DNA of 31,549 nucleotides, from NCBI GenBank assembly GCA_051866635.1, contig JBJDXJ010000043.1, positions 1 to 31,549 on the forward strand, read 5' to 3'. This document shows, piece after piece, positions 2,931 through 28,444 of the stretch (the stretch's first letter is position 1; the number at the start of each line of letters is the position of its first letter). Made by a program: the position numbers and the translations under genes. The notes under the pieces are model-generated. The model made no database searches. It had not been told where the DNA came from and saw only the letters and a list, made by a program, of their open reading frames with translations. This DNA comes from Clostridia bacterium. GTDB taxonomy: Bacteria; Bacillota; Clostridia; UMGS1883.

Positions 2931-4451
2931 TTATATATTCCAGACAATCTCTACATTCCCATCGTTTTCTATGTAAATCTTGTCAATTAAAACTGATGCA
3001 ACGCCCTTCTTTTCCTCAAAGCTTGCAGTCTGCCACTTTTTCGATAGGTTGATAGCCTTTTTCACATCTACCTCATTTTCCTGCACTTCTTCAATTTTTT
3101 CAAGGATTTCAACCTTTCTTTGTTTCAGTGCAGTCGCTTTTTTACCAAGGATTGTCAAAAGGTCACTGTTTACATCGTCTTTCATAATTATCTCCGTCAG
3201 CTTATCTTCTTCCAGCTCCACAGCCTTTAACTTATTCCTCAGCTCATTTAAAACAGGCGGTATCGCCTTAGGCTTTTTTGTGCCTTTGATTTCCTCAAGC
3301 CTGAGTGCAATTTCATCGTACACCATATCTTCCAGACTTTTAGCATAAACAGTTGAAATTGGACCTCTGCACTTTAACTTATGGCTTCTGCCCGTGCAGT
3401 TAAAATACCGCCGTACCTCGCCACTCGTCACCGCACTTTTTATTGTGGTCATGGTTGAACCGCACTTCTTGCAAACCACAAGCCCGCCAAGCCAGCTTGT
3501 TTTATTTCCCGCCGAACGCCCTATCTGCTTATTTTTAACAATCTTCCTCTGGCACTTAAGCCATGTCTCACTGTCAATTATACCCTCGTGGCTCATAACC
3601 ACAACCTTTATATCCGACCAGTCTATGCTATCAGGATTATGTTTTGATAACCCGTACAACTGCAAACCGTGCACCCCATCAAAACCCTCAGGTTCACCAA
3701 TTATGTTGGCGTTCTTTTTCTGATAATATTCGTAAACATTGCTGTCAGCCCTTACGTATATGGGATTTTTCAAAATTGTTGACAACTTCGCTGTGGTCCA
3801 GTCACCGCCATCTGACGGCAGCATGCCAATTTCAACAAGGTTCTTCTGTAACCTCCTCAAAGTAACATTTTCAACTGCATATGTGTTATATATGTATCTT
3901 AGCTGTTCTACCTCGTCTATCTTTGCTTCAAGCCGCTTCGTCTTTATGTTGTTTATAACAGTCGGCACCAAATCGAACCCATATGGTCTTCTGCCTCCCA
4001 TATAAAACCCAAGACTGCTTCTGTGTTCATAAGCCTGACTAACGCGTTCTATGATAGAATTGCGTTCAAACTCAGCGAATACTGCCAAAATTTTCACTAT
4101 TAGCTCTCCATAAGGGCTTGATGTGTCGAACGCCTCCTGTGCTGAAACGAACTCCACGGAATGTTCTTTAAATGTATTTAATATATTTACAAAGTCTGCC
4201 AAACTTCTGCTTATTCGGTCTAAGCGGTAAACAACTACTTTGTTTATCTTCCCCTTTGTTATCTGCCTCATCATTTTCTTAAAGCCGTCTCGGTCTGTAT
4301 TTCCCCCGGAAAATCCGTTATCAATAAAAGTTACTACTTTCTCCTCTCGTTCTTCAGGTCTTAAGACAGCTTTGCAATACTCTATCTGTGTTTCACAGCT
4401 GATGCTATTCTCACGTTCAATGGATTTTCTGGCATAGATAGCTATCGCCAT
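2931..4451 (-). CDS. Large serine recombinase (resolvase + recombinase + zinc-ribbon domains)
   Basis: IYARKS catalytic Ser, DNGFSGGNTDRDGF, VYRLDRISRS, AEFER, PYGF, ILKNPIY, CKKCG...YFNC...C, C-terminal coiled coil; GGGGTGAGG SD before ATG 4451. Confidence 0.93.
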   Translation of the reverse strand: MAIAIYARKSIERENSISCETQIEYCKAVLRPEEREEKVVTFIDNGFSGGNTDRDGFKKMMRQITKGKINKVVVYRLDRISRSLADFVNILNTFKEHSVEFVSAQEAFDTSSPYGELIVKILAVFAEFERNSIIERVSQAYEHRSSLGFYMGGRRPYGFDLVPTVINNIKTKRLEAKIDEVEQLRYIYNTYAVENVTLRRLQKNLVEIGMLPSDGGDWTTAKLSTILKNPIYVRADSNVYEYYQKKNANIIGEPEGFDGVHGLQLYGLSKHNPDSIDWSDIKVVVMSHEGIIDSETWLKCQRKIVKNKQIGRSAGNKTSWLGGLVVCKKCGSTMTTIKSAVTSGEVRRYFNCTGRSHKLKCRGPISTVYAKSLEDMVYDEIALRLEEIKGTKKPKAIPPVLNELRNKLKAVELEEDKLTEIIMKDDVNSDLLTILGKKATALKQRKVEILEKIEEVQENEVDVKKAINLSKKWQTASFEEKKGVASVLIDKIYIENDGNVEIVWNI

Positions 4452-4495
4452 AAACCTCACCCCCTTTAAGGGAATATTAATTAATGTACCCGTTT

Positions 4496-4540
4496 GCGGT
4501 GCCCGGCAATGGCACATTTCATGTGCCATTTGCCGACCGC
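4496..4540. repeat. GC-rich long hairpin (REP-like or RNA structure) upstream of the recombinase
   Basis: Nested pairs GCGGT/ACCGC, CGGCA/TGCCG and ATGGCACAT-ttc-ATGTGCCAT. Confidence 0.65.
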
Positions 4541-4582
4541 AGCACAACCCTATGCATTCGCTCAATCATCCACCGGATGCGC

Positions 4583-4756
4583 TCATGCTCGGTTCCCTGT
4601 CGCCATCCCTTTTGAGAAAATCCTGTATAGGTCTTCTGCAATCTTATCTTCAAGCTCTCGCTTTTCGCTATCCGTTAAAATCACCTTTTTGTGGTAAACT
4701 TTTTTAGTTTCGTTCTTCAAGTCTGTATACTCTGTGGTTTTAAATAAATCTGTCAT
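4583..4756 (-). CDS. Small hypothetical protein (57 aa) upstream of the recombinase
   Basis: AGGAGG SD before ATG 4756; same orientation as the recombinase. Confidence 0.6.
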   Translation of the reverse strand: MTDLFKTTEYTDLKNETKKVYHKKVILTDSEKRELEDKIAEDLYRIFSKGMATGNRA

Positions 4757-4911: not shown

Positions 4912-4951
4912 AAATACCCATAGGAGTACTTCGCTCCTATGGGTGTTTTTT
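4912..4951 (-). terminator. Terminator of the res operon (possibly bidirectional)
   Basis: ACCCATAGGAG-tacttcg-CTCCTATGGGT 11-bp stem directly after the res stop, T-rich on both strands. Confidence 0.8.
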
Positions 4952-7900
4952 ACAAACTATTCATAACTTCAAGCAATTTCTGATAGCTATCCACCTCATG
5001 ATATTTCACATTATCCGTTGAAATTTCATTGAACAACCTCTTCGCACATTGAATCTTCGCTGCCTCAATCGGTCTTAAATCAAGACTGCTCATAGAGCCT
5101 TTTGTCTCGGCAATAAAACAAATGTGCTTCACTGTTCCCTCATAGAAAGCAATCGCCCAGTCAGGCGAATAATTTCCTACAGGGGTTGGAATATGAAATC
5201 CTTTCGGAAGTTTAGCGTATACACAAACCTCATCCGCATTATCTAAGTCTTCCGCAAATTGTCGTTCAATGCTAACTTCGGCACTACCGTCTGTAAACAC
5301 ATAATCCTGAATATGCTTCTTAGCCTTAAATGCCTTTGAGAAATCTTTTCCGATTTTTTCCGCAGTAAAGATTGCGTTATTATATGTTCCTTCAATCTGA
5401 TTGTACGAAATATCCGAAACTATCGCTGTAGCTTTTTGTTCACGAATAAGCCTTATAACCTTTGAAATAAATTCTTCAGGGTTATATTTAAACATCATAA
5501 GCTTGTCTTCGCGAATTCCTTTAAGAATAGCCGCCACGGTTTTTCTTGTGAGTGTTGTACCTTCAGCTATTTTTCCTATGAGGTCATACTTAACGCTACT
5601 CATTTCAGAATGTTCAAGTGTGCGAGTTTTTGACTTCTCGGTTTCAAAGGATGCACCTCTCTCAACCTCGTACTGGTTCATCTCATCCTTCTGCTCACCA
5701 ATTGTGGTGGTATATTGCAACTGGGATATAAAGAGCTTTTCATCTATGTGGTCAATAGATTTTTTAATAAGCTCTTCCGAATCAAAGTGTGCCGTATAAG
5801 CATATTTCTTGTTAATCTTATCCCACAATGCCTTAAACTCTTTCTTGCTGAAATTATCATTTAACGGATTATCCTTAACCTTTGTATCGTGGCCGTCTTC
5901 AAACATCTTTTCAAGCACGGAATCATCATATACAGCCTGAATAAGCATCTGGATACCTTCTGTCATAGGCTTCAAGATTTCCGGAAGCGGTGCAATCGTT
6001 CCCATCTGAGCATCCATACGATACTTATCCGTAATCTTTCTGTCCATATCCACATAACCGTTTGCGATAAGATAAAACTCAATAGTGTTCGCCATTTTAT
6101 CGTCAATAAGCGTCGGTACTCCGTCAACTTTAACATATTTGCCTTTGAAATACTCGTTTGTTGCAACTGTCGGTCTGTCGTAAAGAACCTCTTTAATATC
6201 TGCCTGCAAAGCTTTAACAAATTCCTTATAGCTGTCGCTGGCTATAACTGTAAGTTTGTTAATATCGTGTACCTGTTCGCCAAGCGTCTCACTATCCATT
6301 CTGTTACCGGACTGATTCACACATAAACGAAGTCCGCGACCAACTTCCTGTCTCTTCGCAGTTTGGCTGTCAGAATGTTTCAGCGTACAAATCTGGAACA
6401 CATTCGGGTTATCCCAGCCTTCACGGAGAGCCGAATGTGAGAATATAAATCTTGTCGGTTCTTTGAAACTGAGAAGCTGTTCCTTTCTCTTCAAAATCAG
6501 TTCATATGCTGAAATATCATCCGAAAACTCACTGCCACGCTTCAATTGACTGTTAATGCTTCTTCCGGTCTTTTTATCGATACTAAAATATCCATTGTGT
6601 ACCTTTGTTACATCAAAGCAAGTTTTTCGCAAATACTTCTGATACGGCGTGTCTTCCAATGTTGCATATTCGTTTAATACAGAAATGTATTCTTCTTCAA
6701 AAATTTTTCCGTATTCACCTAAAACCTCATCCCCGTTTTCATCATAATCACGATACTTGCAAACCTCGTCAATAAAGAAAAGGGAAAGTGTTTTAATGCC
6801 CATATTAAACAGCATTTCTTCTTTTTCAAAATGTGATGCTATAGTTTCACGGATTTGTATTCTTCTCATGTCCTTTTCAGAAACATCGCCTACAACATTT
6901 CCGGCGTAAATAACCTCACCGTTTACAAATGTTACACTGTTCCGAAGCGGGTCAATTTCAGAAATTGTGTACCCCTCCTTGTACTGCTCCATCTCTTGCG
7001 AAGCATTGTAAAGGTCATCATTTACACCCAATATTCTTGTTTCCCGATTTATGGACTTATTGTACCCAATTTCCAGTTCAATCTTTGCCATAGGCGGCTT
7101 TTTAGGCGAAAGTATAATCTTCTCTAAGAATAAATAACTATCTGTTCCCCTAAAGTTTTTAACCTCAAAACCTTTAACCTGTATCTTCTTTACAAGCTTT
7201 TTGTTAAACGCCTCAAGTGCATCCAATACATAAATAAGATTATTTTGCTTTTTATGCGTTGCAGAATAATTGAGTGCAAACAGCGGATTGAAGTTTTTCA
7301 GTGCCTTCTGTGTAACATCGCCACCCATCTTCTGCGGCTCGTCCAAAATTATAATAGGTCTGTTTGCCTTTATAACATCAATAGGTCGCCTCGACTGAAA
7401 CTCATCACGTTTGGAATAAATAATTCTCGCTTCTTTGCTCTTGCCGTCCTCTTTTAACGACGACGCAAACGCCTGTGTGTTGATAATCATTACGTTAATT
7501 CCGGCACTTGCTGAGAAATTGTCAATCTGATTGAGGTTTGCGCTGTTATAGATAAAGAACCTTGCTTTTTTACCGTAATGCTCCATAAAATGTTCGGCAG
7601 TAATTTCAAAAGTCTTTGCAACGCCCTCACGTATAGCAATGCTCGGCACAACAACAATGAACTTGCTCCATCCGTAACGCTTGTTTAATTCAAACATTGT
7701 CTTTATGTAAACATACGTTTTACCCGTACCTGTTTCCATCTCAATATCAAGACTGCATCTGCCCAAATCCTTAACCAATGCGGATGATAACTTAATATTG
7801 TTTTGGCTTTGTATATCACGAATGTTCTTCAACAGCAAATCATCAGAAAGGTATAGTTCTTCATTCTTATACCCTGTTTCATTTTCAAGGTCAATTATTT

Positions 7901-8072
7901 CACCATACTCGTCTGCCATCTTCATTGTGCTTTGCACAGGTCCCGTCTTCTTAACCTTTCCACGGTCACGGATATAGGATATTCCCTCATAATATCCCTG
8001 CCCTGCAAACACATTACAAACCGCTTCCACAGCATCAGTTTGATATTGTTGTATTTTAAAATTAAATTTCAT
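4950..8072 (-). CDS. res: Type III restriction endonuclease subunit Res
   Basis: IEMETGTGKT (Walker A), ILDEPQ, YSATH, ALREGWDNPNVFQIC, QEVGRGLRL, C-terminal YSPDWAI...IAETKG PD-(D/E)xK nuclease; GAGGA SD before ATG 8072. Confidence 0.95.
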   Translation of the reverse strand: MKFNFKIQQYQTDAVEAVCNVFAGQGYYEGISYIRDRGKVKKTGPVQSTMKMADEYGEIIDLENETGYKNEELYLSDDLLLKNIRDIQSQNNIKLSSALVKDLGRCSLDIEMETGTGKTYVYIKTMFELNKRYGWSKFIVVVPSIAIREGVAKTFEITAEHFMEHYGKKARFFIYNSANLNQIDNFSASAGINVMIINTQAFASSLKEDGKSKEARIIYSKRDEFQSRRPIDVIKANRPIIILDEPQKMGGDVTQKALKNFNPLFALNYSATHKKQNNLIYVLDALEAFNKKLVKKIQVKGFEVKNFRGTDSYLFLEKIILSPKKPPMAKIELEIGYNKSINRETRILGVNDDLYNASQEMEQYKEGYTISEIDPLRNSVTFVNGEVIYAGNVVGDVSEKDMRRIQIRETIASHFEKEEMLFNMGIKTLSLFFIDEVCKYRDYDENGDEVLGEYGKIFEEEYISVLNEYATLEDTPYQKYLRKTCFDVTKVHNGYFSIDKKTGRSINSQLKRGSEFSDDISAYELILKRKEQLLSFKEPTRFIFSHSALREGWDNPNVFQICTLKHSDSQTAKRQEVGRGLRLCVNQSGNRMDSETLGEQVHDINKLTVIASDSYKEFVKALQADIKEVLYDRPTVATNEYFKGKYVKVDGVPTLIDDKMANTIEFYLIANGYVDMDRKITDKYRMDAQMGTIAPLPEILKPMTEGIQMLIQAVYDDSVLEKMFEDGHDTKVKDNPLNDNFSKKEFKALWDKINKKYAYTAHFDSEELIKKSIDHIDEKLFISQLQYTTTIGEQKDEMNQYEVERGASFETEKSKTRTLEHSEMSSVKYDLIGKIAEGTTLTRKTVAAILKGIREDKLMMFKYNPEEFISKVIRLIREQKATAIVSDISYNQIEGTYNNAIFTAEKIGKDFSKAFKAKKHIQDYVFTDGSAEVSIERQFAEDLDNADEVCVYAKLPKGFHIPTPVGNYSPDWAIAFYEGTVKHICFIAETKGSMSSLDLRPIEAAKIQCAKRLFNEISTDNVKYHEVDSYQKLLEVMNSL

Positions 8073-8088
8073 AAGGCTTTCCTCATTT

Positions 8089-8210
8089 CTGCAAGTTACC
8101 GGCAAGTTAAAATTTCTCAACATATTGTGTTAAATCGCCTATACTACCACTTTATCCTGTGTTACACCTTGGCTTTTTCGAGGTTCCTGCAAGTTACCAG
8201 CAAGTTAAAA
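8089..8210. repeat. Two 24-bp direct repeats, each an 11-bp-period tandem of GCAAGTTA
   Basis: CTGCAAGTTACCGGCAAGTTAAAA (8089-8112) and CTGCAAGTTACCAGCAAGTTAAAA (8187-8210), one mismatch. Confidence 0.9.
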
Positions 8211-9656
8211 CTATGCCCATATCGGAATATATTTTGAATGTCTCGGTGCCGTATCCTCTAGCTTTTTCACATATTCTTTTTCGCAAGCTTCTTTGATCAA
8301 TCTCGAAATGCTGGCAGATGAAGAGTCTTCCAATCCAAATCTTTCTCTCAATGAGCTATTAGTCAAAAATTCTCCCTGTATATACTTTATACAAGCGTGC
8401 ATATAACAAGCCCAAAGCTTATCAGCTGGGGTTAAATCAAAGAAATTTGTTTGTGAAAATAACGTGACTTTTGTGTTCTCATCATAAATACGAATATGTG
8501 GCGTAGGAAGTTGCTGTAATTCGCAAGAGATTACAATTTTATCCCAACCCGTACCCAGCTCTTCACACATTCTCAATCTTCGCATCAATGATGCCAATTT
8601 TTCATTTCTTGATTTAGGCGGATTATCAATAATTCTGGCAACATCAACAAGTGGAATTCCCGGATTTGTAATTTCAATCCTATTGCTAAAGATTTCAACG
8701 ACTACGCCCGTACCTGTTATTGAAAAATCTTGATGTATCAGCGCATTCGCGACAGCTTCTCTTAAAGCAATTGTCGGATATGCCTGTTGCTTATGTCGTT
8801 TCGCCCCTTCTATAACTTCCTCTGAAGGCAGTAGTGCCTCTATAAATTTTAATAAACCGCCAAAACCCACAGCATACCCCTTGTTCCCAACATCCTCTTT
8901 TAACATCTCAAGCTTATTTGTTCCTCTATACTGTACAACGCGAACAGCCTTCCTTTCAAGTCTAGGGAAGTCAGAAAGTCGCTTTGCAAACAGAATCGCC
9001 CCCATATTCGTTATTGCATACAACCCATTATCCTGCCGCACCAAAATATCCTCTTGAGTCAGATAATGTACAATTCCTTCTAATTCCGTTGGAGTTGGTT
9101 CACCTTTTGCATCAAAATATACAGAAAAATCTAAAAAACGTACCGCTTCTTCTGCTGTTAAATCCTGTCTTGCAAATTGCTCCTCAAATCGGTTATTCCT
9201 AATTTTGTCCCATAACTGTGCTTGCATCTGCGGATAGTCACTCAATTTTTTGGTATAACTCCCTACTCTTATATAGTCAACCTTCTTAAAAGTAACTGTT
9301 TGATTGGTTGCCTTATATATTATGAGCACAACTACCTTTTTATCATTCATATAAATTGTTTTGAATTCAAATTCTGCATTTTTAGACACCAAAGTTCTTA
9401 GCCAATTTTCCAGTTCTTGGTTTCCCACTTTTAATGTGTATTGATCATACTCTGTTCCTACAATTTCATGGGTTTTATCATTCACTCCCCAAATCATATA
9501 TGCACAAGTTTTCTCTGCATATGTAGCGCCGTTGGCCAGTGCACTAATATCTTGACCAATCATCTCTGGGTCATAATTATTATGTTTAAATTCAAACCAA
9601 TTTGTTTCACTTTTATGTTCTCTCAATTTGTTAACTAACTTTTCCAAATTCTCCAC
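8211..9656 (-). CDS. Schlafen/AlbA_2 domain + HATPase_c_4 (RecG C-terminal-like) + C-terminal HTH protein
   Basis: ETNWFEFK, ISALANG, YMIWGVND, YIRVGS (AlbA_2); YPTIALREAVANALIHQDF, RIEITNPG, SRNEKLA, EELGTGWDKI; C-terminal TNSSLRERFGL wHTH. GTG start 9656 (or 9665). Confidence 0.88.
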   Translation of the reverse strand: MENLEKLVNKLREHKSETNWFEFKHNNYDPEMIGQDISALANGATYAEKTCAYMIWGVNDKTHEIVGTEYDQYTLKVGNQELENWLRTLVSKNAEFEFKTIYMNDKKVVVLIIYKATNQTVTFKKVDYIRVGSYTKKLSDYPQMQAQLWDKIRNNRFEEQFARQDLTAEEAVRFLDFSVYFDAKGEPTPTELEGIVHYLTQEDILVRQDNGLYAITNMGAILFAKRLSDFPRLERKAVRVVQYRGTNKLEMLKEDVGNKGYAVGFGGLLKFIEALLPSEEVIEGAKRHKQQAYPTIALREAVANALIHQDFSITGTGVVVEIFSNRIEITNPGIPLVDVARIIDNPPKSRNEKLASLMRRLRMCEELGTGWDKIVISCELQQLPTPHIRIYDENTKVTLFSQTNFFDLTPADKLWACYMHACIKYIQGEFLTNSSLRERFGLEDSSSASISRLIKEACEKEYVKKLEDTAPRHSKYIPIWA

Positions 9657-9665
9657 AGAAATCAC

Positions 9666-10664
9666 CTACCTTATCGTCGCATTAATTCTCGCAGTCAGCC
9701 TTTTGTACAAATCATCTTGGTCTGCCCACAAAACAGTATTAACCTGCTTCACATCAAGATGACCATCTTTACTAAACTGTTCTTTATTGCAAACCTGTAT
9801 AACTTCTTTGCCAAGTCCAAATGCATAACCGGCTTCATAATATGCACCGTTATTGTGACCTGTCAACTCTGCTATTACAAACCTTGCCTGCCTTATTTCA
9901 TAAAGCATTTCAGGTACAATTTGATGATTATGCTCAATTTCGTCCATAATGCGAGGTTCAAATCCACACTCAACTATCGCTTTTTTTATGATTTCTCGCG
10001 TCTCTTTCATCTCATAAGCAAACGACATCGCGACAAACACAGTCTTTGAGTTTTCAGATGAATTTTTCTGCAACTCATCCACTCTTTTCCAGCCGTTGGG
10101 TTTCATATATATTTTCGTTGTTTCTCCACAATAAGTCTCAAAAAAATCTTGTTCTACCAAATATCCTATAAGTTCATTTATTTGATTTTTTATCACTGCA
10201 TCTTTTAATAAATTTCCTTTTTCGTCGTGCTTTTTTATAAACAATGCACTTGTCAACTGCATAGCTGTAATTTCAAATATATCACCAAAAAACTTTGATT
10301 TCCTTGCAAAACCCAAAAGTATTTTATCAATCCTTTCCGCAAAACTTTTCGGCTGAAAGGCAAGAATCTCTTCTCTTGATACATAAGGAATGTTATCAGG
10401 TTCTTTGCATTCTCTATCGTACAATTCTTTATTTCCTAAGAATGTAGAAAACCTATATGGAACATCCGAAAAGTTTTCATCAGAATGATAATAGAGATAT
10501 GAAGCTATTTCATCCTTTATATCTGACCCCGTCATAAACGGAGATTTCTGATACTCAAACCTTCCGCAAGTAGGGCATTCCACGAACACATGATTATGAT
10601 CCATTCCTGTTTGCGAACTGGTTATACTACCCACACAATAAGGGCATATTTCATAATTACTCAT
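9666..10664 (-). CDS. Zn-ribbon + helical/wHTH + nucleoside 2-deoxyribosyltransferase-like domain protein
   Basis: N-terminal CPYC...CPTCGRF; C-terminal VFVAMSF, EIRQARFVIAELTGHNNGAYYEAGYAFGLGKEVI. ATG overlaps the mod stop (TGATG). Confidence 0.75.
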   Translation of the reverse strand: MSNYEICPYCVGSITSSQTGMDHNHVFVECPTCGRFEYQKSPFMTGSDIKDEIASYLYYHSDENFSDVPYRFSTFLGNKELYDRECKEPDNIPYVSREEILAFQPKSFAERIDKILLGFARKSKFFGDIFEITAMQLTSALFIKKHDEKGNLLKDAVIKNQINELIGYLVEQDFFETYCGETTKIYMKPNGWKRVDELQKNSSENSKTVFVAMSFAYEMKETREIIKKAIVECGFEPRIMDEIEHNHQIVPEMLYEIRQARFVIAELTGHNNGAYYEAGYAFGLGKEVIQVCNKEQFSKDGHLDVKQVNTVLWADQDDLYKRLTARINATIR

Positions 10665-12574
10665 CACAGCACCTTCCTTACCGTTGTGGGGCTATATGTA
10701 TTGAATATCTGCTCAAAGTTTGTTGCGACACTATCGTTTGCCATAGAACTGTCACGCATTACAAAATAATACGGTTTCTGCTTCGCAATTTCTGTTACCA
10801 CTTCTTCTGTAACATCTTTATCAAAGCACGCTATAAGATAATTACCCTCAACGCTGAACACTTTCTTACCGGCAATTGTTGTTTCCTCTATCTTGCCTGA
10901 AAGAAGCACACCTAAATCAAGCATAACCTGGAAAAGTAAATCTTCCGGCGTTCTGTCCTCTTTTATATTATCCACAGAATTTAAAAGCTCGTCCATCGTC
11001 AAAGCCTGTGGGCTGTAATAAACATCTTTCATATTGGAACTGTCGCATTTCAAAACACGGAAACCACCGTCAAATTTAGCGTTAGGATTTTCCTCCGCAA
11101 TCTTTTTAGCCGCACGACGGATACGCTCTTTACCGATTTCGCAAATGTTTTTATATCCAGCCTTATATGCTTCTGATTTCTCGTCTGTTTCTTCGGGCAA
11201 CTGCACCATAATAAACTTACGGTGTCCGCCGTCCTCTGCGTTTAACTGCATAACAGCGTGGGCGGTTGTGGCAGAGCCGGAGAAGAAGTCTAAAATTACA
11301 TCATCATTTCCAAGCACCATGTTTTGAATGTGTTTAATTAACTGAAGCGGCTTTGGATAATCAAAATATTTTCCATCAAACAATTCCATTACCTCTCTCG
11401 TTCCTCTTGCGGAATTAGCACCTTCGATATTAATTAAATTTTGATAAGATAATGTACGCATAATAGGCTTATCTTCATTGTCAACCTTTTCATATTGTTT
11501 AAAATATACAGACCAACTATTTGCTGTTTTTTTCATTACAATAAAGCCATTTTTTATTCCCCATTCAATCTTTGTCTTTGACCATCTCCAGTTCCAATGT
11601 TCTTGTTTTTCTGAGGTGCCACCAGGGTATATAGAAACACCATCAGGCATTTCTATCGAATAATTAAGTGCCTCAGAATAATGGCTTCCTGTCATTCTTC
11701 TATCAAGTTTATTAAGAACATATCCTCCGCGTTTTGAAAAATATTCATCCGTACTTGAATATTTTTTTCTATCTGTTATTTCTACCGTAGAAAATTTGCA
11801 TAACTCGCGATTTTTAGAGTAAAGCAAAATATTTTCTGTAACAATTTTTACATCTTCCCCTGTGTTGGAGCCAGGTGTAGATTGCCAAATTAAATTTGCA
11901 ACAAAATTGTTGTTCCCAAAAATTTCATCAGTAATTTTCCGAAGATTGTATAATTCTTCATCCCCTATCGAAATAAAAATAGCACCATCATCTGCCAATA
12001 AGTCTTTTGCTACTTTTAATCGTGAGTACATCATGTTAAGCCAATCTGTATGAAACCTACCATTGCTATCTATGTTCTTTACTAATCGATTGCCTGACTC
12101 GTCAAATTGTCCACTATTGCCTAAGTATTTTTCCGTGCTTTGCGCAAAGTCATCCTCATACACGAAGTCATTACCTGTATTATACGGTGGATCTATGTAT
12201 ATCATCTTAATTTTACCGAGATACGTTTCCTGCAACAGCTTCAATACTTCAAGATTATCGCCCTCAATATAAAGGTTCTCTGTATTATCAAAGTTAACAC
12301 TTTCATCTTTGCAAGGTCTTAAAGTTTTATTTATAGGAGCATTGGCAAGAAGGATAGACTTCTTCTTATCAGGCCATGTAAACTGATAGCGTTCATCCTT
12401 GCCTTCAACAACCGTTGTCGAAATCTCCTGCATCAACACGTCCTTGTCAATTGCACGAACAACCTCCCCATTTTCATCAATCGTTTCTGTCACGGCATTC
12501 GGGAATAATGCTGCCAACTTTTTAAAATTCTCATCCGCTTTATTCGGTGTGTGCATTTTTAATTCATCACTCAT
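10664..12574 (-). CDS. mod: Type III R-M methyltransferase subunit Mod (N6-adenine)
   Basis: NLYIEGDNLEVLKLL, IYIDPPYNTG, WLNMMYSRL, FDYPKP, ILDFFSGSATTAHAV; central AT-rich variable target-recognition region. Confidence 0.95.
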   Translation of the reverse strand: MSDELKMHTPNKADENFKKLAALFPNAVTETIDENGEVVRAIDKDVLMQEISTTVVEGKDERYQFTWPDKKKSILLANAPINKTLRPCKDESVNFDNTENLYIEGDNLEVLKLLQETYLGKIKMIYIDPPYNTGNDFVYEDDFAQSTEKYLGNSGQFDESGNRLVKNIDSNGRFHTDWLNMMYSRLKVAKDLLADDGAIFISIGDEELYNLRKITDEIFGNNNFVANLIWQSTPGSNTGEDVKIVTENILLYSKNRELCKFSTVEITDRKKYSSTDEYFSKRGGYVLNKLDRRMTGSHYSEALNYSIEMPDGVSIYPGGTSEKQEHWNWRWSKTKIEWGIKNGFIVMKKTANSWSVYFKQYEKVDNEDKPIMRTLSYQNLINIEGANSARGTREVMELFDGKYFDYPKPLQLIKHIQNMVLGNDDVILDFFSGSATTAHAVMQLNAEDGGHRKFIMVQLPEETDEKSEAYKAGYKNICEIGKERIRRAAKKIAEENPNAKFDGGFRVLKCDSSNMKDVYYSPQALTMDELLNSVDNIKEDRTPEDLLFQVMLDLGVLLSGKIEETTIAGKKVFSVEGNYLIACFDKDVTEEVVTEIAKQKPYYFVMRDSSMANDSVATNFEQIFNTYSPTTVRKVL

Positions 12575-13718
12575 TTTCGTTATCCTCTCCGTTTTCTATT
12601 ATATCGGTAATTTGTTCTATAAATATTTTACATAAATTGTTTTTGGATAATTCTAATTTTGTACATAAACCATTTTTTGTGTCTTTTTGAAAATTAAATT
12701 CTTTTTCCTTTTGATCACTTGGCATATAATACGTTTCTGAATTATGATAATAATATATTTTATTTGTGTTATGGTCTATACAAAAGAACTTTCCGTTAGA
12801 AGCACTTTCATTGCAAAAATAAGAAATATTATAAAATGTAGAATATGACCAATATATTGGGATATCATCCAAATCAAGTTGTTTATCGAAAACAATATTA
12901 ATAGCTTCTAAATCTAAGAATTTAGAAGAATCTATCTGAACCATGTTGTTTTTAATTAATTTTGAAAACCCATTGTCTGTAGAAACCGCATCTAAAATTT
13001 TGACGAAATTGGTTAAGTTATAGTTGCTATTATTCAGTCTTAATTTAAAAATATAGTAATGTGCACTTTCCAATAATTCATCTAAAAAATCCACTATATT
13101 GTTATATATAAAATCTTCTCCAAATAAAGGTTCAATATTCCCATAAAGGGAAATATTATATAGACTATCATCTGTAAAATATTTGCCTATATCATCTAAC
13201 TTAATTAATTGTGGGTATAGATAATTATATATTACATCAAATGTGTTAATGAAACAGGCTATTATTTCAGAATATTCGTCATTTGTTTTTAATCCAAAAT
13301 GAGTAATAGCATTGCGTTTTTGTCCAAGAGTTTCTAAGATTTTCTTTACTTTGTTAGGCAATTTGAATTTTTTAATATATTTTTTTACAGCGCAAGAATA
13401 TGTTATGGTTCTAAAACCATCTTCTTCAATCAGGATATCTTCCAATTTGATAGAACTGGTCACTTTTTGCATTGCTTTCAATATAACTTCGTTTTCTGGA
13501 TCTTCGTAAATGCTTGTTGGTTCATCAACTGCCAGTAAAACTTTTAATAATAACTCTACGGAATTTTCTAAAAAAGTTAAAGCAATTTTTATACACTCGT
13601 CATATTCCACGTCTGAAACAACCTTATCATTAACATAATAGAATTTAACGAAGTGTCTTTTTGCAATGAAAAAGGAATTAATTGCATTTTTGCATAATAA
13701 TAATTTAATATTAACCAC
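12567..13718 (-). CDS. Very AT-rich hypothetical protein with an N-terminal HEPN-like RNase motif
   Basis: LENSVELLLK helix followed by the RxxxxH motif RNAITH; 3' end overlaps the mod start by 8 nt; start codon uncertain (GTG 13718 or ATT 13709). Confidence 0.6.
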   Translation of the reverse strand: MVNIKLLLCKNAINSFFIAKRHFVKFYYVNDKVVSDVEYDECIKIALTFLENSVELLLKVLLAVDEPTSIYEDPENEVILKAMQKVTSSIKLEDILIEEDGFRTITYSCAVKKYIKKFKLPNKVKKILETLGQKRNAITHFGLKTNDEYSEIIACFINTFDVIYNYLYPQLIKLDDIGKYFTDDSLYNISLYGNIEPLFGEDFIYNNIVDFLDELLESAHYYIFKLRLNNSNYNLTNFVKILDAVSTDNGFSKLIKNNMVQIDSSKFLDLEAINIVFDKQLDLDDIPIYWSYSTFYNISYFCNESASNGKFFCIDHNTNKIYYYHNSETYYMPSDQKEKEFNFQKDTKNGLCTKLELSKNNLCKIFIEQITDIIENGEDNENE

Positions 13719-13760
13719 TCCTTCTAAATCAATTTTTTAATAAAAATTACAACCGTCTTA

Positions 13761-14363
13761 TTATTCTTTGCTTTCTAAATCTTTCTTTAACTTGTTAACC
13801 TGTTGTACCAACTCAAACTTCTTTTTCGGCTGTTTTTCTGCTCGTGCCTGTTTTTCCAGCTTTTCAATTTCCTTTTGGAGTTTCGCTTTGCGTTCTATCT
13901 GCTCCAAATTTTCGTCAAGGGTTAATTCCTCGCTCCACTCACCGATATCTAAACTCCGTACAATGTTTTCCCAAACCAAATCCATATTAAGCCCTTTTAT
14001 GCTTATTTCAGGCTCATTTTCAAACCACCGGGTCTTATACAGTTTTTTGTGGTATAAAGCTATTTGCGTTTTGTTTTCAAAAGTGAGTATGTACAGCACA
14101 TTGTGCGTATTGTTTTTTGAAATCACTTCAAGGATTTTATAGTTAAAATCCCATTTTTTCAGTTCAATATTCAAAACCAATATTTCTGAAATTGTTTCAC
14201 CCTTGTCAATATGTAAAGTGTCTGCCGAAAGCTTGTTCTGCCAAACAATCTTCTTTATGTCCATAACAAATGAATCTTTAATTGCAGAATTTAGATCAAG
14301 ATTTCTGTAAAAAGCCTCTTTCGGCATTACCTTATTAACTTCAGTTGCTTTCGGAAAGCTCAT
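13761..14363 (-). CDS. DUF4391-like protein
   Basis: N-terminal PKATEVNKVMPKEAFY, EILVLNIELK, C-terminal coiled coil LEKQARAEKQPKKKFEL; usual position between SNF2 helicase and mod. Confidence 0.8.
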   Translation of the reverse strand: MSFPKATEVNKVMPKEAFYRNLDLNSAIKDSFVMDIKKIVWQNKLSADTLHIDKGETISEILVLNIELKKWDFNYKILEVISKNNTHNVLYILTFENKTQIALYHKKLYKTRWFENEPEISIKGLNMDLVWENIVRSLDIGEWSEELTLDENLEQIERKAKLQKEIEKLEKQARAEKQPKKKFELVQQVNKLKKDLESKE

Positions 14364-14380
14364 AATTTTACCACCAAATA

Positions 14381-14650
14381 TTAATCATACCAATAAACTT
14401 CTTCCTCTTCCTTTTTCTTTTTTGCCGTGGAAGGATGTGCCTTCTTTTGTTTTTCTTTAAATTCTTCTTCTCTCAATGCCTTGTAGTTACTGCAATGTGC
14501 ACTACCTACACATTTTCCTGAGCGATAAGAACATCTATCACCTTCATATTGATAGTGCTTGCATCTGCCTTTATATCGTCTGTCGTCACCTTCGGCGCGA
14601 TGCACTCTTTCCTTGTGCCAAGGCGAACCTGTAAGTCTGTTAACTCCCAT
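14381..14650 (-). CDS. Small basic Cys-rich hypothetical protein (89 aa)
   Basis: AGGAGG SD overlapping the helicase stop; four Cys in CKHY...CSY...CVGSAHCSNY. Confidence 0.7.
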   Translation of the reverse strand: MGVNRLTGSPWHKERVHRAEGDDRRYKGRCKHYQYEGDRCSYRSGKCVGSAHCSNYKALREEEFKEKQKKAHPSTAKKKKEEEEVYWYD

Positions 14651-14659
14651 ATTCTCCTC

Positions 14660-17600
14660 CTATCTTACGACTAAGAAACAAATCAATTCAAAGTCATCAA
14701 GACCTTTTATATCATTTTTAAGAACAGTAGTTTCACCGCTTCCAAAGAAGCTGTCTATATCATTTTCTTCCTTCAATTCAATGATTGACGAAATCGCTTG
14801 TCCCAAAAGACGCGACATTTCTGTCATATTTCGTCCGTCTTTTGTTTCTTTGTTAAAAGCACGGTACACTTCGGGGATAGGTTCAGTTTTCCCCTTGCAA
14901 ATATATCGCATTTTGTCAAGCATTGCTTTAGGTGAAAGATGGTCGCATACAATTTCCCCGTCTTTAGATATATATACCATATAAAATGGGTGTAATCTGT
15001 TCTGATTATCAATGTTCACACTGTTGGAGCGATTTTTCAGCACATAAATCACACCTTCAGGTGCCTCGTCACTCTTTTGTGCAACCGCATGGAGACCAAA
15101 CGGTGTTTTGTCAAGGTCAGAATGGTTCTTTACATATTCAAGTAGGTCAAGTCTGAACTCATTGAGCCCCAAATCCATAATGGAAATACCCGAGCTCATT
15201 TCCTCAATGTCAACCACTTCTTCCTGAAGCCTCTTTAGCTGTGCTTTTCTGTACTCCAAATCACCTTTTTCTTCAGGGCTCAAAAGGTTATCGTCACCAG
15301 TGGATGTCATTACAGAAATCTTCATTCTTGTTTCAACTTTTGCCTTTAAGTCTATGTATTCATCAAGTGTAACATCGGGCCAGAAGTTTACAAGCTGAAT
15401 GTATTCATTTTTACTTCCTATACGGTCAATACGACCAAATCTCTGTATAATACGAACAGGGTTCCAGTGAATATCATAATTGATAAGATAGTCACAGTCC
15501 TGCAAATTTTGACCTTCGGATATACAGTCTGTTGCAATCAAAATATCAATGTCATCTTTTGGCATATTTTCAAACAAATCTCTGCCCTTTGATACAGGCG
15601 AGAAGCAAGTGAGAACAGTGTTCAAATCCGTCTTAAGGCGAGGCACCGTGGTTCTGCCGTCAACAGACCCTGTTATAATTGCAGTATTCAACCCAAACTT
15701 TTCTTTTACAAACTTACTTACATTGTCGTACAAGTATCCTGCTGTATCTGCAAAAGCAGTAAATATAATAACCTTTTTATTATCGGGGTTTATGGGGTTT
15801 GCAATCTTATTTGCAATAACATCTAAAAGTGTCTGCAACTTGCAATCGTGTTCGGGAGTTATGTCGCTGACCATAAGGTTTAATAATTCTAGCACATCCC
15901 TGTCTTTTTCAAGGCTTGCCTTCCAGGACTTATAATCCATATCTTCAAGGGATATCTTCACCTTCTTGCCGAAAGTAAATGTATCTTCTTCCTGGTCGTC
16001 CCAATCGTACTCATGAATATTTGTAATTTCATTCAAATCCATTTCTATATCAGACGTTTTAGTGTTTGCAAACTCATCAATGCTTGCAATAGTATCTTCA
16101 ATAAGAGTTCTTATTCTCTGCAAAGTAAGGTTAAAAGAATACACACTGCTTTCCATTCTCTTCATAAGGTTAATGGCAGTAAGCCTCCGTATACCCTGTT
16201 CACGACCTGCCTGAGTAAGGCTCTTATTATCTTCAAACAGCTCAGCGTATTTATCAACCTTGCTCGGGAATATAAAATGTGATGGAGTATAAATAGAAAG
16301 TGAAAGCTGCATAAGCTGTTCAAATATTTGATTATAGTTTATAGCATCCTTTAAATCTGTCAGCTTCGGACTATACGACATAGGCTTTAACCTTGTAGGG
16401 AACTGTCCAATATCCGCAGTATCGTAATACTTTTCAATATGCTTTCTTGAGCGAGCAATAGTAACGCTGTCAAGCACCTCAAAAAAGTCAAAATCAAGCA
16501 TCTTCAAAAGTGCTTCCGTTGTTCTTTTTTCAGGCTCCCATTTGCACCATGTATTAAATGCACGCTGTGCATTTTTAAATATATCATCAATAGAACGCTT
16601 TGTATTAAGCTTATCATCTATGTAAGAGCTTTCACCTTCGTATGCCAAAGCGAGCTGATTTTTTAAATCATTAAATCTGTTATTAACAGGGGTTGCACTC
16701 AGCATTAAAACTTTTGTTTTTACGCCTTTCCTGATTACTTTATTTAAAAGTGTCATGTAGCGGTTTTCTTTTTCGCTTTCTTCACCGGACAGTTTTCCGC
16801 CGTTTCTGAAATTGTGGGATTCGTCAATAACTACAAGATCATAATTCCCCCAGTTTATCTTGTCAAGCTCTATTCCGTTAGATGTTCCGTTTTTTCGATT
16901 TAAGTCAGTATGATAAAGAACATCATAACGAAGCCTATCCGATGCGATAGGATTATTTATATAGTTTGCCTTAAATGTGTTCCAGTTACTGCCAAGCTTT
17001 TTAGGGCATAATACAAGAACAGACTTGTTTCTGTTTTCGTAATACTTGATTACAGAAAGAGCCGTAAATGTTTTACCGAGTCCAACACTGTCAGCTAAGA
17101 TACAGCCGTTAAACTTTTCCAGTTTATTTATAATAGCCAGTGCTGCATCCTTCTGGAAATTGTAAAGCATACTCCAAATTTTACTTTCCTTAAATCCCGT
17201 AGCCTCGTTAGGCAAAACATCCTCACTTATATCCTCAAGAAATTCATTGAAAATATTATAGAGCGTAACAAAGTAAATAAAGTCAGGAGAATTTTCATTA
17301 TATGCTGTTGTTATATTTTCAATAACTTCTTCCGTAACGTCCTGTAATTCGTTAGAGTTATTCCAAAGCGAATTAAAAAGTTCTATATATGCATTTGAGA
17401 ACGGAGCCTCTGTTTTCTGCACCATGTTGTATGCATTGTTGCCTTTCTCACAACCAATATCAACCGTTGTAAAACCGTTTACGGGCATATAGTTTTTGTC
17501 ATCAACATTTATAAAGCCCATCATGTTTTTGTTAGTTGTATTCGATTTAAACGTAACCTTTTCCCTAATCCACTCAGCACACTCTTTCGCAATAGCCTTT

Positions 17601-17890
17601 TGCGTCATTTCGTTACGAAGCTTTACCTCAAATTCTGTTCCGTACAAGCTTCTTTCACGATGTAACCTCGGGATATAGAATTCACGTTTTTCCTTTTTTG
17701 TTTTGTCTGTTGTAAATGTGGGCGATGTGAAAATGAAACGCAATTCGTCTATTCCTTCAAGCTCCTTCTTAAGCTCCTGAAAAGCATAGATAGAAAAGCA
17801 TGCCGCAGCAATGCTTATCTTACTATCCGGCTTTATTTCAACAGATAAATCATCTCTGAGAGTTTCATTTATATTGTCAATAAGTTTCAT
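14660..17890 (-). CDS. SNF2-related SF2 helicase/ATPase
   Basis: YNFQKDA Q-motif, ILADSVGLGKT, IDESHNFRN, LSATPVNN, LIATDCISEGQNLQ, YDIHWNPVRIIQRFGRIDRIGS; GGGAGG SD before ATG 17890. Confidence 0.93.
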   Translation of the reverse strand: MKLIDNINETLRDDLSVEIKPDSKISIAAACFSIYAFQELKKELEGIDELRFIFTSPTFTTDKTKKEKREFYIPRLHRERSLYGTEFEVKLRNEMTQKAIAKECAEWIREKVTFKSNTTNKNMMGFINVDDKNYMPVNGFTTVDIGCEKGNNAYNMVQKTEAPFSNAYIELFNSLWNNSNELQDVTEEVIENITTAYNENSPDFIYFVTLYNIFNEFLEDISEDVLPNEATGFKESKIWSMLYNFQKDAALAIINKLEKFNGCILADSVGLGKTFTALSVIKYYENRNKSVLVLCPKKLGSNWNTFKANYINNPIASDRLRYDVLYHTDLNRKNGTSNGIELDKINWGNYDLVVIDESHNFRNGGKLSGEESEKENRYMTLLNKVIRKGVKTKVLMLSATPVNNRFNDLKNQLALAYEGESSYIDDKLNTKRSIDDIFKNAQRAFNTWCKWEPEKRTTEALLKMLDFDFFEVLDSVTIARSRKHIEKYYDTADIGQFPTRLKPMSYSPKLTDLKDAINYNQIFEQLMQLSLSIYTPSHFIFPSKVDKYAELFEDNKSLTQAGREQGIRRLTAINLMKRMESSVYSFNLTLQRIRTLIEDTIASIDEFANTKTSDIEMDLNEITNIHEYDWDDQEEDTFTFGKKVKISLEDMDYKSWKASLEKDRDVLELLNLMVSDITPEHDCKLQTLLDVIANKIANPINPDNKKVIIFTAFADTAGYLYDNVSKFVKEKFGLNTAIITGSVDGRTTVPRLKTDLNTVLTCFSPVSKGRDLFENMPKDDIDILIATDCISEGQNLQDCDYLINYDIHWNPVRIIQRFGRIDRIGSKNEYIQLVNFWPDVTLDEYIDLKAKVETRMKISVMTSTGDDNLLSPEEKGDLEYRKAQLKRLQEEVVDIEEMSSGISIMDLGLNEFRLDLLEYVKNHSDLDKTPFGLHAVAQKSDEAPEGVIYVLKNRSNSVNIDNQNRLHPFYMVYISKDGEIVCDHLSPKAMLDKMRYICKGKTEPIPEVYRAFNKETKDGRNMTEMSRLLGQAISSIIELKEENDIDSFFGSGETTVLKNDIKGLDDFELICFLVVR

Positions 17891-17993
17891 ATTAACCTCC
17901 CCCACAATTAATAGTAGTTGAATGCCTGTCCAATAAAACGCACACGTACAGCAAATTTCCACTTAATACTTTTGAATATAAGTATACTTATTT

Positions 17994-18021
17994 ATCATAT
18001 CACATTTTTTGCAAATTGCAA
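17994..18021 (-). promoter_or_regulatory. Probable promoter of the helicase-R-M operon
   Basis: TTGCAA, 16 nt, extended -10 TGaTATGAT. Confidence 0.55.
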
Positions 18022-18189
18022 AGGATTTTGTCGTATTTTCCGACATATTGGAAATTGTTCCGGTTTTTCGAAAACAATGTCAATCTTTAAACTGTGCGCT
18101 ATCTGTATCTCGTCCTTCCTTTACCCTGTATATCACCAGATTTTGCCATTTTTATTTCACTTTTTACAAAAAAATAAAACATCAATGAG

Positions 18190-18248
18190 CCCAAGTCTAT
18201 CCGGGAGTTTAAAAGATTTTTTTAAAAGAGTAATTTCGGCGAAGCACT
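18190..18248. repeat. Degenerate direct repeat, copy 1 (copy 2 at ~20458-20514)
   Basis: Core AGATTTTTTTAAAAGAGTAATTTCGGCGAA (18214-18243). Confidence 0.75.
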
Positions 18249-18308
18249 CCGCCGCATCACCGACCTGGGAAAACCTGTAAAAATCAACGGAATGACCTTC
18301 CGCTAAGC

Positions 18309-18404
18309 TTAAACGAGACCGAAATTCGGTCTCGTTGTCTTTTTGTATGTAAGCTTTTCCATATACACCTTCGCTCGCTCTAACATTTCTAATTCTGTTG
18401 TCAT
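18309..18404 (-). pseudogene. Truncated gene remnant (31 aa)
   Basis: GAGGAG SD then MTTELEMLERAKVYMEKL..., resembling the N-terminus of a longer conserved Firmicutes hypothetical protein; runs into a hairpin and stops. Confidence 0.45.
18312..18344. terminator. Perfect inverted repeat / terminator-like hairpin
   Basis: AACGAGACCGAA-a-TTCGGTCTCGTT followed by GTCTTTTT. Confidence 0.6.
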
Positions 18405-18434
18405 TTTTCCATCTCTCCTCTACTATTTCAGTTA

Positions 18435-18770
18435 TTACTCAAAAAGGTCCTCGTAGATTCTTTTCATTCGCTTAACAGTCCTTTTCAACAAAGCATTGGT
18501 TATATCTATATCAAATCTCTTATAGTCCCATATTACTTCTTTATAGAATACATCATAGTAGATTGGAGGCACGCCCGTTTTATCAACCGTTTTTATATAT
18601 TCTGCCCATTCTCCCGCAGAAAATCCCTCTATAATCCCCAATACCGCACCATCTGTAACGTAAGGATAGTGATTTCCCGTTCCTTTTACCATCGGTTTTA
18701 CACAAATAAGCTCAATATCAAAAAACCAGCCTGCACCGTAATCATATTCCAGTTCCATTGTATCGCCCAT
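18435..18770 (-). pseudogene. C-terminal fragment of a plasmid pRiA4b ORF3-like (TnpR-like) protein
   Basis: GDTMELEYDYGAGWFFDIEL...YPYVTDG...GIIE motif at the very start of the ORF; no SD; N-terminal part missing. Confidence 0.6.
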
Positions 18771-18902
18771 TTAAAATAAATTCAACAAAAATACTAGCAG
18801 TAACAGTATCAGTATTATACTCTCAAAGGAGTATTTTTTCAATTTTTTCATAAAGAGAATTGTTATAAAAGTGAAAACTTTTCACTCTTTATGGCAAAAT
18901 TG

Positions 18903-20642: not shown

Positions 20643-21211
20643 TTAAAATATTTCTTTATTCAAAACCACACTGAGCACCTTAATCGCATCTTCATATTTC
20701 AGTGGTTTAAATAAAAGTGCTGATGTAGTTTTTTCATAATCTTCCCGATAAGCCTCTGTTTTCACAATTTCCTTAATCAGCAAATTCATATCCACGTCAT
20801 TCATTGCCGACAAGCAGGTTTTATGCAGTTTTCTTTCCTCGCGGACTATTTTCACAAGAATTCGCAAATCATCGTTAAGCTCAACAACTTCAAGCAATTT
20901 GTATAAATCGTATATGTGTCTTGAATGACCTTTTATTGTCCCTGCCAGATAATAATCGCCTAAGGCAAATAGTTTATCCACAAAAGTCCTGTCAGCCGTT
21001 TGAGCCGCTATTTCAAACGGTGATAAATCAAATTCATCAATTACAGAAATAATATCTTCTTTCAATTTTTTTCCTCATGCTTTCTCCGGGCTTTGTATTC
21101 CCTGCAATATTGAGGTCAATATCCTCCGAAAAGCGGTCTATTAACTTATAGCAGATTTGATGTGTTGTACACAACTTCTTTAAATAACTCTTTATCTTCA
21201 TGTAAGAACAT
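20643..21211 (-). pseudogene. abiEii: AbiEii-family nucleotidyltransferase toxin, internally deleted and frameshifted
   Basis: ATG 21211 MFLHEDKELFKEVV..., then in another frame YKLIDRFSEDIDL, an extra A in an A7 run (21066-21072), then RTFVDKLFALGDYYL...SRHIYDLYKL; the KGGT motif segment is absent. Confidence 0.8.
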
Positions 21212-21818
21212 TTCCAATCTCCATTTCGTATATAGCCTTATACACTTTATCCGGAAACAAAGGCAAATACATATCAAAATCCGCCTTCTTAATCCCGTTA
21301 TTTTTTATATATTCACAGACAAGTGCCTTTGCCTCTTCCGTGCCTATTTCGCAATATGTTTCTATATCCTTCAACAAATCCAGTATCTGTAGGGTTTTAA
21401 CATTTTCTTTTGTGATTTGTGTTCGTGATTTTCTCAAGACGAATTTTCTTCCGTTCAAATCAATTTTCTTCATCGGATTACCCATTTCGTTTGTAACGAT
21501 TTCTGAAACGAAAGGCATCTGTGTTGATATACCTATTTGGTTTGCAAATATATATCCTGAGTAATATCCTTGGGTTTTTCCGTTTCGTAATATATATTTC
21601 CTTTCAATCACAACTTCAGGAGACAAACTGACTTCTCCTCCAAGCCGTGACTTTTTAGGAATATAGTAAACCCCATTTACAAATCTTTTGATTTTTCCGT
21701 TGTCTGTCAAAATTTTAAATTGCTGCCTGCGATTTACCTCGCTCATTTCTATTTCAATATCAGCTGCAATTATCGGTTCCCCGGGATTATAATTTTCTGA
21801 GATATATTCCCACAACAC
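21198..21818 (-). CDS. AbiEi-type antitoxin / DUF6088-like regulator
   Basis: N-terminal wHTH (GEPII...GKIKRFVNGVYYIPK), GYYSGYIFANQIGISTQMP; overlaps the abiEii start. GTG 21818 favoured (ORF track 21833). Confidence 0.8.
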   Translation of the reverse strand: MLWEYISENYNPGEPIIAADIEIEMSEVNRRQQFKILTDNGKIKRFVNGVYYIPKKSRLGGEVSLSPEVVIERKYILRNGKTQGYYSGYIFANQIGISTQMPFVSEIVTNEMGNPMKKIDLNGRKFVLRKSRTQITKENVKTLQILDLLKDIETYCEIGTEEAKALVCEYIKNNGIKKADFDMYLPLFPDKVYKAIYEMEIGNVLT

Positions 21819-21873
21819 TCTTCTCACCTTCATTTTTCACATTTTTAAAATTACCTTTTTCTTTTTCGTTATC

Positions 21874-26025: not shown

Positions 26026-26073
26026 TTTAATCCCTCTCTCTTCTACAACTATGCTATCTGCATTATACATCTG

Positions 26074-28438: not shown

Positions 28439-28444
28439 CGTGCT

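Follow-up and report, generated by a model that had tools for sequence, protein, structure and literature searches.

Organization of the locus

The window analysed here, i.e. the whole 31,549-nucleotide (nt) contig JBJDXJ010000043.1 of a Clostridia bacterium (assembly GCA_051866635.1), carries an eight-gene operon borne entirely on the minus strand, from the ATG of a helicase gene at 17890 to the stop codon of res at 4950. This operon is a variant of the type III restriction-modification (R-M) systems and an ordinary case of defence-gene embedding. Its genes encode, in order, an SNF2 ATPase, a protein of 89 amino acids (aa) designated ORF89 (for open reading frame), a DUF4391 protein, a HEPN protein designated X, the methyltransferase Mod, a protein with the nucleoside deoxyribosyltransferase (NDT) fold, a Schlafen (AlbA_2)-HATPase protein and the nuclease Res, after which comes a terminator. 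The SNF2 ATPase, DUF4391, Mod and Res constitute the core, and the four other proteins are passengers encoded in slots A, B and C between the core genes, as listed below.

17975-18083, minus strand: promoter-like candidates 5' of the helicase gene (18083-18054; 18022-17994, with an extended -10; 18003-17975), not above chance
14660-17890, minus strand: core, SNF2 ATPase, 1076 aa from an ATG preceded by a Shine-Dalgarno (SD) sequence; 'HKD+Snf2' model C3a139, E 1.5e-127
14381-14650, minus strand: passenger ORF89, slot A, 89-aa basic Cys-containing protein, family not recognised
13761-14363, minus strand: core, DUF4391 protein, 200 aa; PF14335, E 1.3e-41
12567-13718, minus strand: passenger X, slot B, HEPN RNase-like, 383 aa, guanine-cytosine (GC) content 0.258
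10664-12574, minus strand: core, type III Mod, N6-adenine (m6A) methyltransferase with DPPY and FxGxA motifs; MTase_III, E 7.6e-224
9666-10667, minus strand: passenger, slot C1, NDT-fold protein, 333 aa; the ATG at 10664 gives a 332-aa form
8211-9665, minus strand: passenger, slot C2, Schlafen AlbA_2 + HATPase_c_4 protein, 484 aa; PF04326, E 3.6e-16
8089-8208, minus strand: tandem motif with an 11-nt period, two copies 98 nt apart, directly 3' of the Schlafen gene
4950-8069, minus strand: core, type III Res with Walker A, DEPQ and a PD-x17-ExK nuclease; REase_III, E 3.5e-285; SD before the ATG at 8069
4916-4944, minus strand: intrinsic-terminator-like hairpin with a perfect 11-bp stem

A first-pass annotation of this DNA had described eight co-oriented genes with tight junctions, one upstream promoter, one terminator and three embedded effector genes. 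The minus-strand run from 17890 to 4950 was found as described, and the single terminator is borne out by the hairpin lying 3' of res. Tight junctions apply to four of the seven, namely the helicase stop codon sitting within the SD (TAGGAGG) of ORF89, the 8-nt overlap of the X gene and mod, the TGATG common to mod and the NDT gene, and the NDT stop at 9666 abutting the GTG start of the Schlafen gene at 9665; the three others are gaps of 17 nt (ORF89/DUF4391), 42 nt (DUF4391/X) and 141 nt (between the Schlafen stop at 8211 and the res ATG at 8069). A single promoter could not be demonstrated, as the number of promoter-like sites was not above chance (59 vs. 56.3 +/- 8.0 in shuffled sequences) and candidates occur upstream of and inside the operon alike, including one at 9866-9837 that matches 11 of 12 positions about 170 nt 5' of the Schlafen gene. 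Regarding the embedded genes, the three effector calls hold but the non-core genes number four, ORF89 included.

A four-gene core shared from Clostridia to E. coli

Textbooks present type III R-M as a two-gene system, but the four-gene version considered here spans Clostridia to E. coli. Mod exhibits the DPPY (at 128) and FFSGS (at 430) motifs, Res associates a superfamily 2 (SF2) ATPase (TGTGKT, DEPQ) with a PD-(D/E)xK nuclease (PD-x17-ETK at 969), and both genes lie in one same-strand operon, where two passengers separate them in the window. The likeness to canonical type III R-M of the EcoP15I/StyLTI type thus resides in a DPPY Mod, a DExx + PD-(D/E)xK Res and the mod-res order; here, however, a second ATPase and a DUF4391 protein come first and passengers are found between the genes. 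Against NCBIfam PRK15483, Res reached 387 bits for a cut-off of 564.

The comparison covered the best 80 of 131 DUF4391 relatives, the loci being chosen by DUF4391. The helicase gene lies upstream of DUF4391 in 69 of the 71 loci with enough DNA, Mod lies downstream in 67/69 and Res in 56/61, and all four core genes are present in 51 of the 57 loci having both flanks. All 49 intact loci (window included) have the Walker A motif in both the helicase and Res, together with the helicase DExH and the Mod DPPY; the nuclease motif of Res is present in 48 of them. Pairwise identities are correlated among helicase, DUF4391 and Res (Spearman 0.77-0.80) and less so for Mod (0.49-0.58), the pairs not being independent. 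The closest helicase relatives are Clostridia records. E. coli keeps the core order, with 44-55% identity for helicase, Mod and Res; one E. coli locus has two passengers and another just a short opposite-strand ORF before mod. Judging from gene order and identities, the core genes move and diverge as one set of four.

The helicase N-terminus aligns to the HKD+Snf2 model, yet the HKD motif HxKx4D is absent from all 49 intact loci (0/49), so that this nuclease-like domain is read as dead and the identity of a PLD-SNF2 nuclease-helicase was rejected. An SNF2 ATPase beside a methylase is also a trait of DISARM (DrmD) and of the DUF499/DUF3780/DUF1156/PLD system, but the partial matches fall far under the cut-offs (155 of 610 bits for DrmD, 121 of 1100 for the PLD anti-phage protein) and, among the window proteins scanned, no DrmB or DrmC match was found and a partial DrmA match concerned the helicase only.

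Of note, 16 of the 80 related helicases possess a C-terminal extension of about 130 aa, which in the three that were scanned (L006, L012, L043) is a YAcAr/SLOG domain. ASCH domains also occur as fusions, with DUF4391 in three loci and at the helicase N-terminus in another (L032, L039, L049, L070). These additions give a hint that sensors of nucleotides or of modified bases may be accommodated in the module.

Literature searches, to which subscription papers and preprint supplements were out of reach, returned no paper on the helicase-DUF4391-Mod-Res core and no study of its two extra genes; searching for DUF4391 gave nothing relevant, and searching for type III systems with SNF2 proteins gave EcoR22I as the sole relevant system. 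From the accessible text of that preprint, EcoR22I is a type III mod-res pair linked to an SNF2-like helicase, which restricts unmodified lambda, and whose Mod-Res alone kills upon Ocr, the suppressor insertions being found in mod and res only (10.1101/2023.04.06.535777). Since these suppressors are confined to mod and res, the backup killing in this system needed no embedded effector. EcoR22I comprises three genes, and its description as available does not mention DUF4391, compared with the four-gene core of the window. Besides, its reported nuclease residues D1024 and D1043 have numbers exceeding the 1023 aa of the E. coli Res of the present family, which suggests that it probably belongs to another Res subfamily.

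A predicted contact between the helicase and DUF4391

Complex modelling was performed with helicase residues 290-1076 and DUF4391, each with a 46-row alignment. The pair scored 0.62 vs. 0.00 for the best of three controls; the score mark is reached by 116 of 157 solved pairs and 2 of 215 mismatched ones, counts that hold roughly with the custom alignments used here. Contacts agree between runs in at least 92% and the partner has a pLDDT (predicted local distance difference test) value of at least 81. In the modelled interface, helicase residues 1044-1057 pack against the N-terminal half of DUF4391. D1044 is invariant, F or L occupies positions 1048/1049 in all 46 sequences (F1048/F1049 in the window), and the E. 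coli helicase tail retains this D1044-F/L pattern. A sequence search found no solved structure of a DUF4391 relative. The model supports binding, in which the helicase would dock on DUF4391 through a conserved C-terminal acidic-aromatic segment.

This predicted interface offers a precise target for a mutational test, and a passenger-free copy of the system exists in E. coli, as in NZ_CP082777.1. An extra motor protein with a small predicted partner actually constitutes a more interesting question than the effector trio highlighted by the first-pass annotation.

Slots and turnover of the passengers

Among the 62 loci with all core genes, passengers occupy the DUF4391-mod interval in 55, the mod-res interval in 54 and the helicase-DUF4391 interval in 7, and are missing altogether from 3. 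Over the 80 loci, the 161 passengers represent 86 families, or 87 clusters when the singleton X is counted, which makes the two slots a rich source of candidate defence genes. The passengers of the window rarely recur (X in none of the 80 loci, the NDT-fold protein in 2, the Schlafen protein in 1 and ORF89 in 2) and no two of them are found together. More generally, among the 1035 pairs of loci with passengers on both sides, 93 share a family and a single one has an identical set; even at 90% core identity or more, the passenger set is identical in one pair out of six. Homologous loci thus differ in cargo at the same slots and the window trio occurs in 0/80; the trio is a one-off combination, less important than first held.

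A Pfam scan of 115 of the 161 passengers gave a match for 47, including TIR, ThsB, RES, Abi_C, AbiJ, AbiH, RhuM, GmrSD, Shedu and several HEPN families. Of 79 passenger representatives scanned with PADLOC, 18 matched at E <= 1e-25, including SpbK, SduA and HEC-05/06, and 61 remained without strong match; none of the four window passengers gave a full-length high-scoring HEC or PDC match. In slot B, the passenger seen most often belongs to a family of about 600 aa found in 11 loci (e.g. L007:9493-11289), and the representatives scanned have neither a Pfam nor a PADLOC match.

The last mod codons bear an SD-like run in 53 of the 56 junctions of mod with a passenger and in 6 of the 7 with res, and in 49 of the 56 mod-passenger junctions no more than 15 nt separate mod from the next start. 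As the mod tail supplies a ribosome-binding site to any following gene, a tight junction with mod is generic rather than special. In addition, among contigs of related organisms from three public runs (85% likeness), one, probably of another organism, has mod and DUF4391 linked by 1531 other letters replacing X.

The passenger proteins

X consists of a DUF3644-like helical HEPN domain (residues 1-171) bearing RNAITH and of a C-terminal beta-meander. A sequence search returned 109 matches, itself included, many tagged DUF3644 (PF12358), which is a HEPN family according to the part of the source available (PMC3710099). Across 63 sequences, residues R135, N136 and H140 never vary, in line with an Rx4-6H motif. 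The structure model (pLDDT 86) displays a five-strand meander with helices in the C-terminal domain, and its top fold matches are HEPN toxins: 5yep (Z 11.2, root-mean-square deviation (rmsd) 3.8 over 130 aligned residues), 7ae2 (Z 10.2) and 8xdj (Z 9.6). Such Z values are moderate for a helical bundle, yet the leading rows are nearly all HEPN proteins; Foldseek with the whole X model gave nothing at E <= 0.001, the wider aligner alone placing X, and an Atlas search gave unnamed clusters with DUF3644 at 0.84. With a GC content of 0.258 vs. 0.35-0.39 for the neighbouring genes, X would be a recent and separate arrival. Among the metagenome matches listed, 0 of 11 loci have a neighbour matching the core genes, the neighbours being resolvases, KilA-N and other island genes; elsewhere, X shows partial matches in 2 of 398 other genomes of the class and a weak match on one plasmid.

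Two HEPN systems described elsewhere, HEC-08 and Ishtar, which are single-gene defences of the DUF3644/DUF4145 kind, resemble X, as far as their descriptions are available, in having an N-terminal HEPN domain with Rx4H. The C-terminal domain of Ishtar, which acts alone against plasmid, has five or seven beta elements and three helices in the accessible account (10.64898/2026.07.06.735840), and its architecture appears similar to that of X when compared by described topology only. HEC-08 contains zinc-finger-like domains, whereas X has none and no PADLOC match.

The NDT-fold protein is organised as a zinc-ribbon (two invariant CxxC), a middle domain and a C-terminal NDT/N-glycosidase fold. E277 (332-aa ATG numbering) and both CxxC pairs are invariant in 69 sequences, and E277 would be the catalytic nucleophile by analogy with the family. 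The C-terminal domain matches MilB (Z 14.1, rmsd 2.7, 125 aligned), NDTs (Z 12.9-13.7) and, for the best TIR, Z 12.6; the top Foldseek matches are NDTs. Out of 17 contexts, 2 follow a type III mod and the 15 others are genomic (6), viral (7) or on plasmids (2).

The Schlafen-HATPase protein has an intact Ex4ExK motif (ETNWFEFK at residue 20). In its Ex4(E/D)xK motif and its fusion to a kinase/GHKL-fold domain, it has the commonest architecture of prokaryotic Schlafens, i.e. kinase-fold fusions in the text consulted; 2 of 7 Schlafen constructs protected there, a DUF262 and an Ig-like fusion (PMC13056530), which differ in architecture from the window protein. One homologue is named MloB in a plasmid record, and a literature search for MloB returned unrelated papers only. 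The closest homologue (85%) has no core-gene match within 18 kb, its neighbours being a barnase-barstar-like pair on one side and a TIR gene on the other; another (79%, in L007) follows a type III mod. Of 15 plasmid contexts, picked as distinct lineages among 63 records, 9 have no R-M within 4-5 kb, the gene table being incomplete. The gene was not found in the viral contigs searched.

Altogether, the calls of the first-pass annotation on the nature of these proteins were upheld: HEPN for X by its fold and invariant R135/N136/H140, NDT-like by the MilB/NDT fold with E277, and Schlafen-like by SLFN_AlbA_2 + HATPase_c_4 with its motif. All three are plausibly toxic defence effectors, as far as folds and conserved residues can tell.

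In four genomes (window, L007, L122, L141), within or outside R-M, the tandem motif pair, 86-100 nt apart, immediately follows the Schlafen gene, and on this evidence travels with it. It is present in 6 of 401 genomes of the class (0 for the reversed control) and in 48 viral stretches, mostly in intergenic position and at times with a tyrosine integrase or serine recombinase gene close by (11 of the 63 neighbours scanned); possibly it is a recombinase arm-type or regulator site. Its role as a cassette site for all passengers was rejected, since among 104 other loci it occurs only in L007.

As for ORF89, the two loci with homologues are L012 and L072; the gene is joined to both neighbouring genes in contigs of related organisms, and every match of an Atlas search was below 0.9.

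Interpretation of the operon and alternative explanations

The whole is probably best understood as a horizontally acquired four-gene cassette, the slots of which capture self-contained defence genes and the accessory motor of which assists Mod-Res. By family, Mod would mark host DNA and Res would cut unmarked DNA using ATP, type III systems typically hemimethylating an asymmetric site and cleaving where two inverted sites are present. The SNF2 ATPase, binding DUF4391 through its short C-terminal segment as modelled, would form a two-protein accessory motor that may assist Mod-Res by loading it, by displacing DNA-bound proteins or mimics, or by widening the range of DNA that can be cut. The internal junctions would act as capture slots, in which the passengers would benefit from the operon's expression and from being linked to it, the ribosome-binding site already present at the end of mod being part of the reason. 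HEPN, NDT-fold and Schlafen proteins would then be separate one-gene defences, respectively a putative RNase, nucleotide N-glycosidase and tRNase, each with a putative sensor domain, and a layered defence would result from co-location rather than from wiring to the R-M enzyme.

Such embedding is documented for Hma, BREX, DISARM and type I R-M, where, from the accessible text, embedded genes often defend alone (7 of 9 tested protected), the DUF3644 HEPN HEC-08 being among these lone defenders (10.1101/2024.01.29.577857). The likeness lies in variable passengers between methylase-helicase core genes; type III systems, however, are not among the hosts described in that part of the study.

Several points weigh against this interpretation. 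The complex model was built from custom alignments and covers the helicase from residue 290 onwards. In L216, a related Mod-Res pair occurs without the helicase-DUF4391 module, and the frequency of such pairs is not readable from a sample chosen by DUF4391. The X sample is small and partly redundant (about 7 independent contexts), with 6 of the 11 contigs under 4 kb. The two NDT homologues that come closest among those of known context (57% and 46%) stand directly after mod. In 6 of the 15 plasmid records, the Schlafen family is located within a methylase-bearing operon or immediately after one: between hsd genes of type I operons (3), in a DUF499/DUF3780/DUF1156/PLD system (1) and behind other methylases (2). 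This leaning suggests that the Schlafen family may track R-M, and that this gene may have a guarding role.

From the last two observations stems a mixed explanation, in which one passenger or more would be a true R-M guard, the Schlafen-HATPase or the NDT sub-clade being the likeliest, and the others would be independent. This guard, kept inactive by the methylase complex or sensing it, would fire when a phage inhibitor disturbs the complex, like PrrC and RonA. Guarded R-M is indeed known (Ronin, PrrC; 10.1101/2023.04.06.535777, in the part available), the Schlafen homologues stand between the hsd genes of type I operons or behind methylases of other kinds (DUF1156, two others and the type III mod of L007), and type II-type methylases are neighbours of 3 of the 13 more distant NDT homologues from genomic or viral sequences. 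A toxic-type gene inside an R-M operon is what the window has in common with PrrC-EcoprrI and Ronin. In the texts as accessible, however, PrrC is almost exclusively embedded in R-M (10.1101/2024.01.29.577857) and RonA always linked to hsdMS (10.1101/2023.04.06.535777), a near-obligate linkage that X, NDT and Schlafen do not display, the last of them having no nearby R-M in 9 of 15 plasmid contexts and for its 85% homologue. It also seems unlikely that one protein would bind all of the type I, type III and DUF1156 methylases. The mixed explanation deserves consideration as an unlikely, though not negligible, alternative to autonomous passengers.

A bolder extension would regard the operon as a four-subunit class of type III systems, with a DUF4391-SNF2 heterodimer remodelling or protecting Mod-Res, e.g. 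by stripping DNA-mimic inhibitors, with slots serving as an effector platform, and with the MloB-like Schlafen-HATPase as a guard shared across R-M types that would cut tRNA upon inhibition; as a whole, this proposal is doubtful.

Passengers could also be selfish or decayed hitch-hikers, as addiction or neutral cargo, the helicase-DUF4391 pair having a job unrelated to restriction. A few DUF4391 loci without Mod-Res (e.g. L039, L049, L076) would fit, as would the fact that neither of the two protecting Schlafen constructs out of seven was a kinase-fold fusion in the text available (PMC13056530), the membership of HATPase_c_4 in that group being presumed. Catalytic residues are nevertheless invariant across the passenger families, known defence genes occupy the same slots and the linkage of the core is strong across phyla, which makes this explanation improbable.

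Finally, the proposal of the first-pass annotation, i.e. three effectors forming one integrated, PrrC-like guard of a helicase-assisted type III complex, has in its favour a single orientation, tight junctions, one terminator and three intact toxic-type active sites but is very improbable, as the slots are freely swapped, the trio occurs in no related locus and no pair of window passengers recurs, the families occur outside type III R-M, some operons are passenger-free, X stands apart by its GC content as a recent arrival and is replaced by other letters in the related contig, and the overlap with mod is generic.

The surrounding island

The host genome amounts to 2.3 Mb with 39% GC. The operon lies on an island which also carries a serine recombinase gene, HipA-like genes and AbiE. 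The R-M genes gave no long match in 9 same-genus genomes and the glycoside-hydrolase region at about 22390-31549 was matched in 8 of the 8 same-genus genomes searched; the right edge of the island is placed near 22.3 kb. The recombinase is located as follows.

2931-4565, minus strand: large serine recombinase, downstream of the operon, part of the island

Rfam gave no match at E up to 1 on window positions 1-22500. Upstream of the recombinase gene, a non-coding stretch with a hairpin (about 4487-4605) has many scattered copies in related genomes. The island also encodes a helix-turn-helix protein and two HipA-like kinases (103-2866), as well as, at 20643-21833, an intact AbiEi and an AbiEii ORF of 140 aa, which matches the C-terminal half of the model only and may be broken or mis-started. 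At 18208-18772, a pRiA4b ORF3-like fragment has a copy at 93% identity on contig C38, and this contig also carries a partial Schlafen-HATPase relative.

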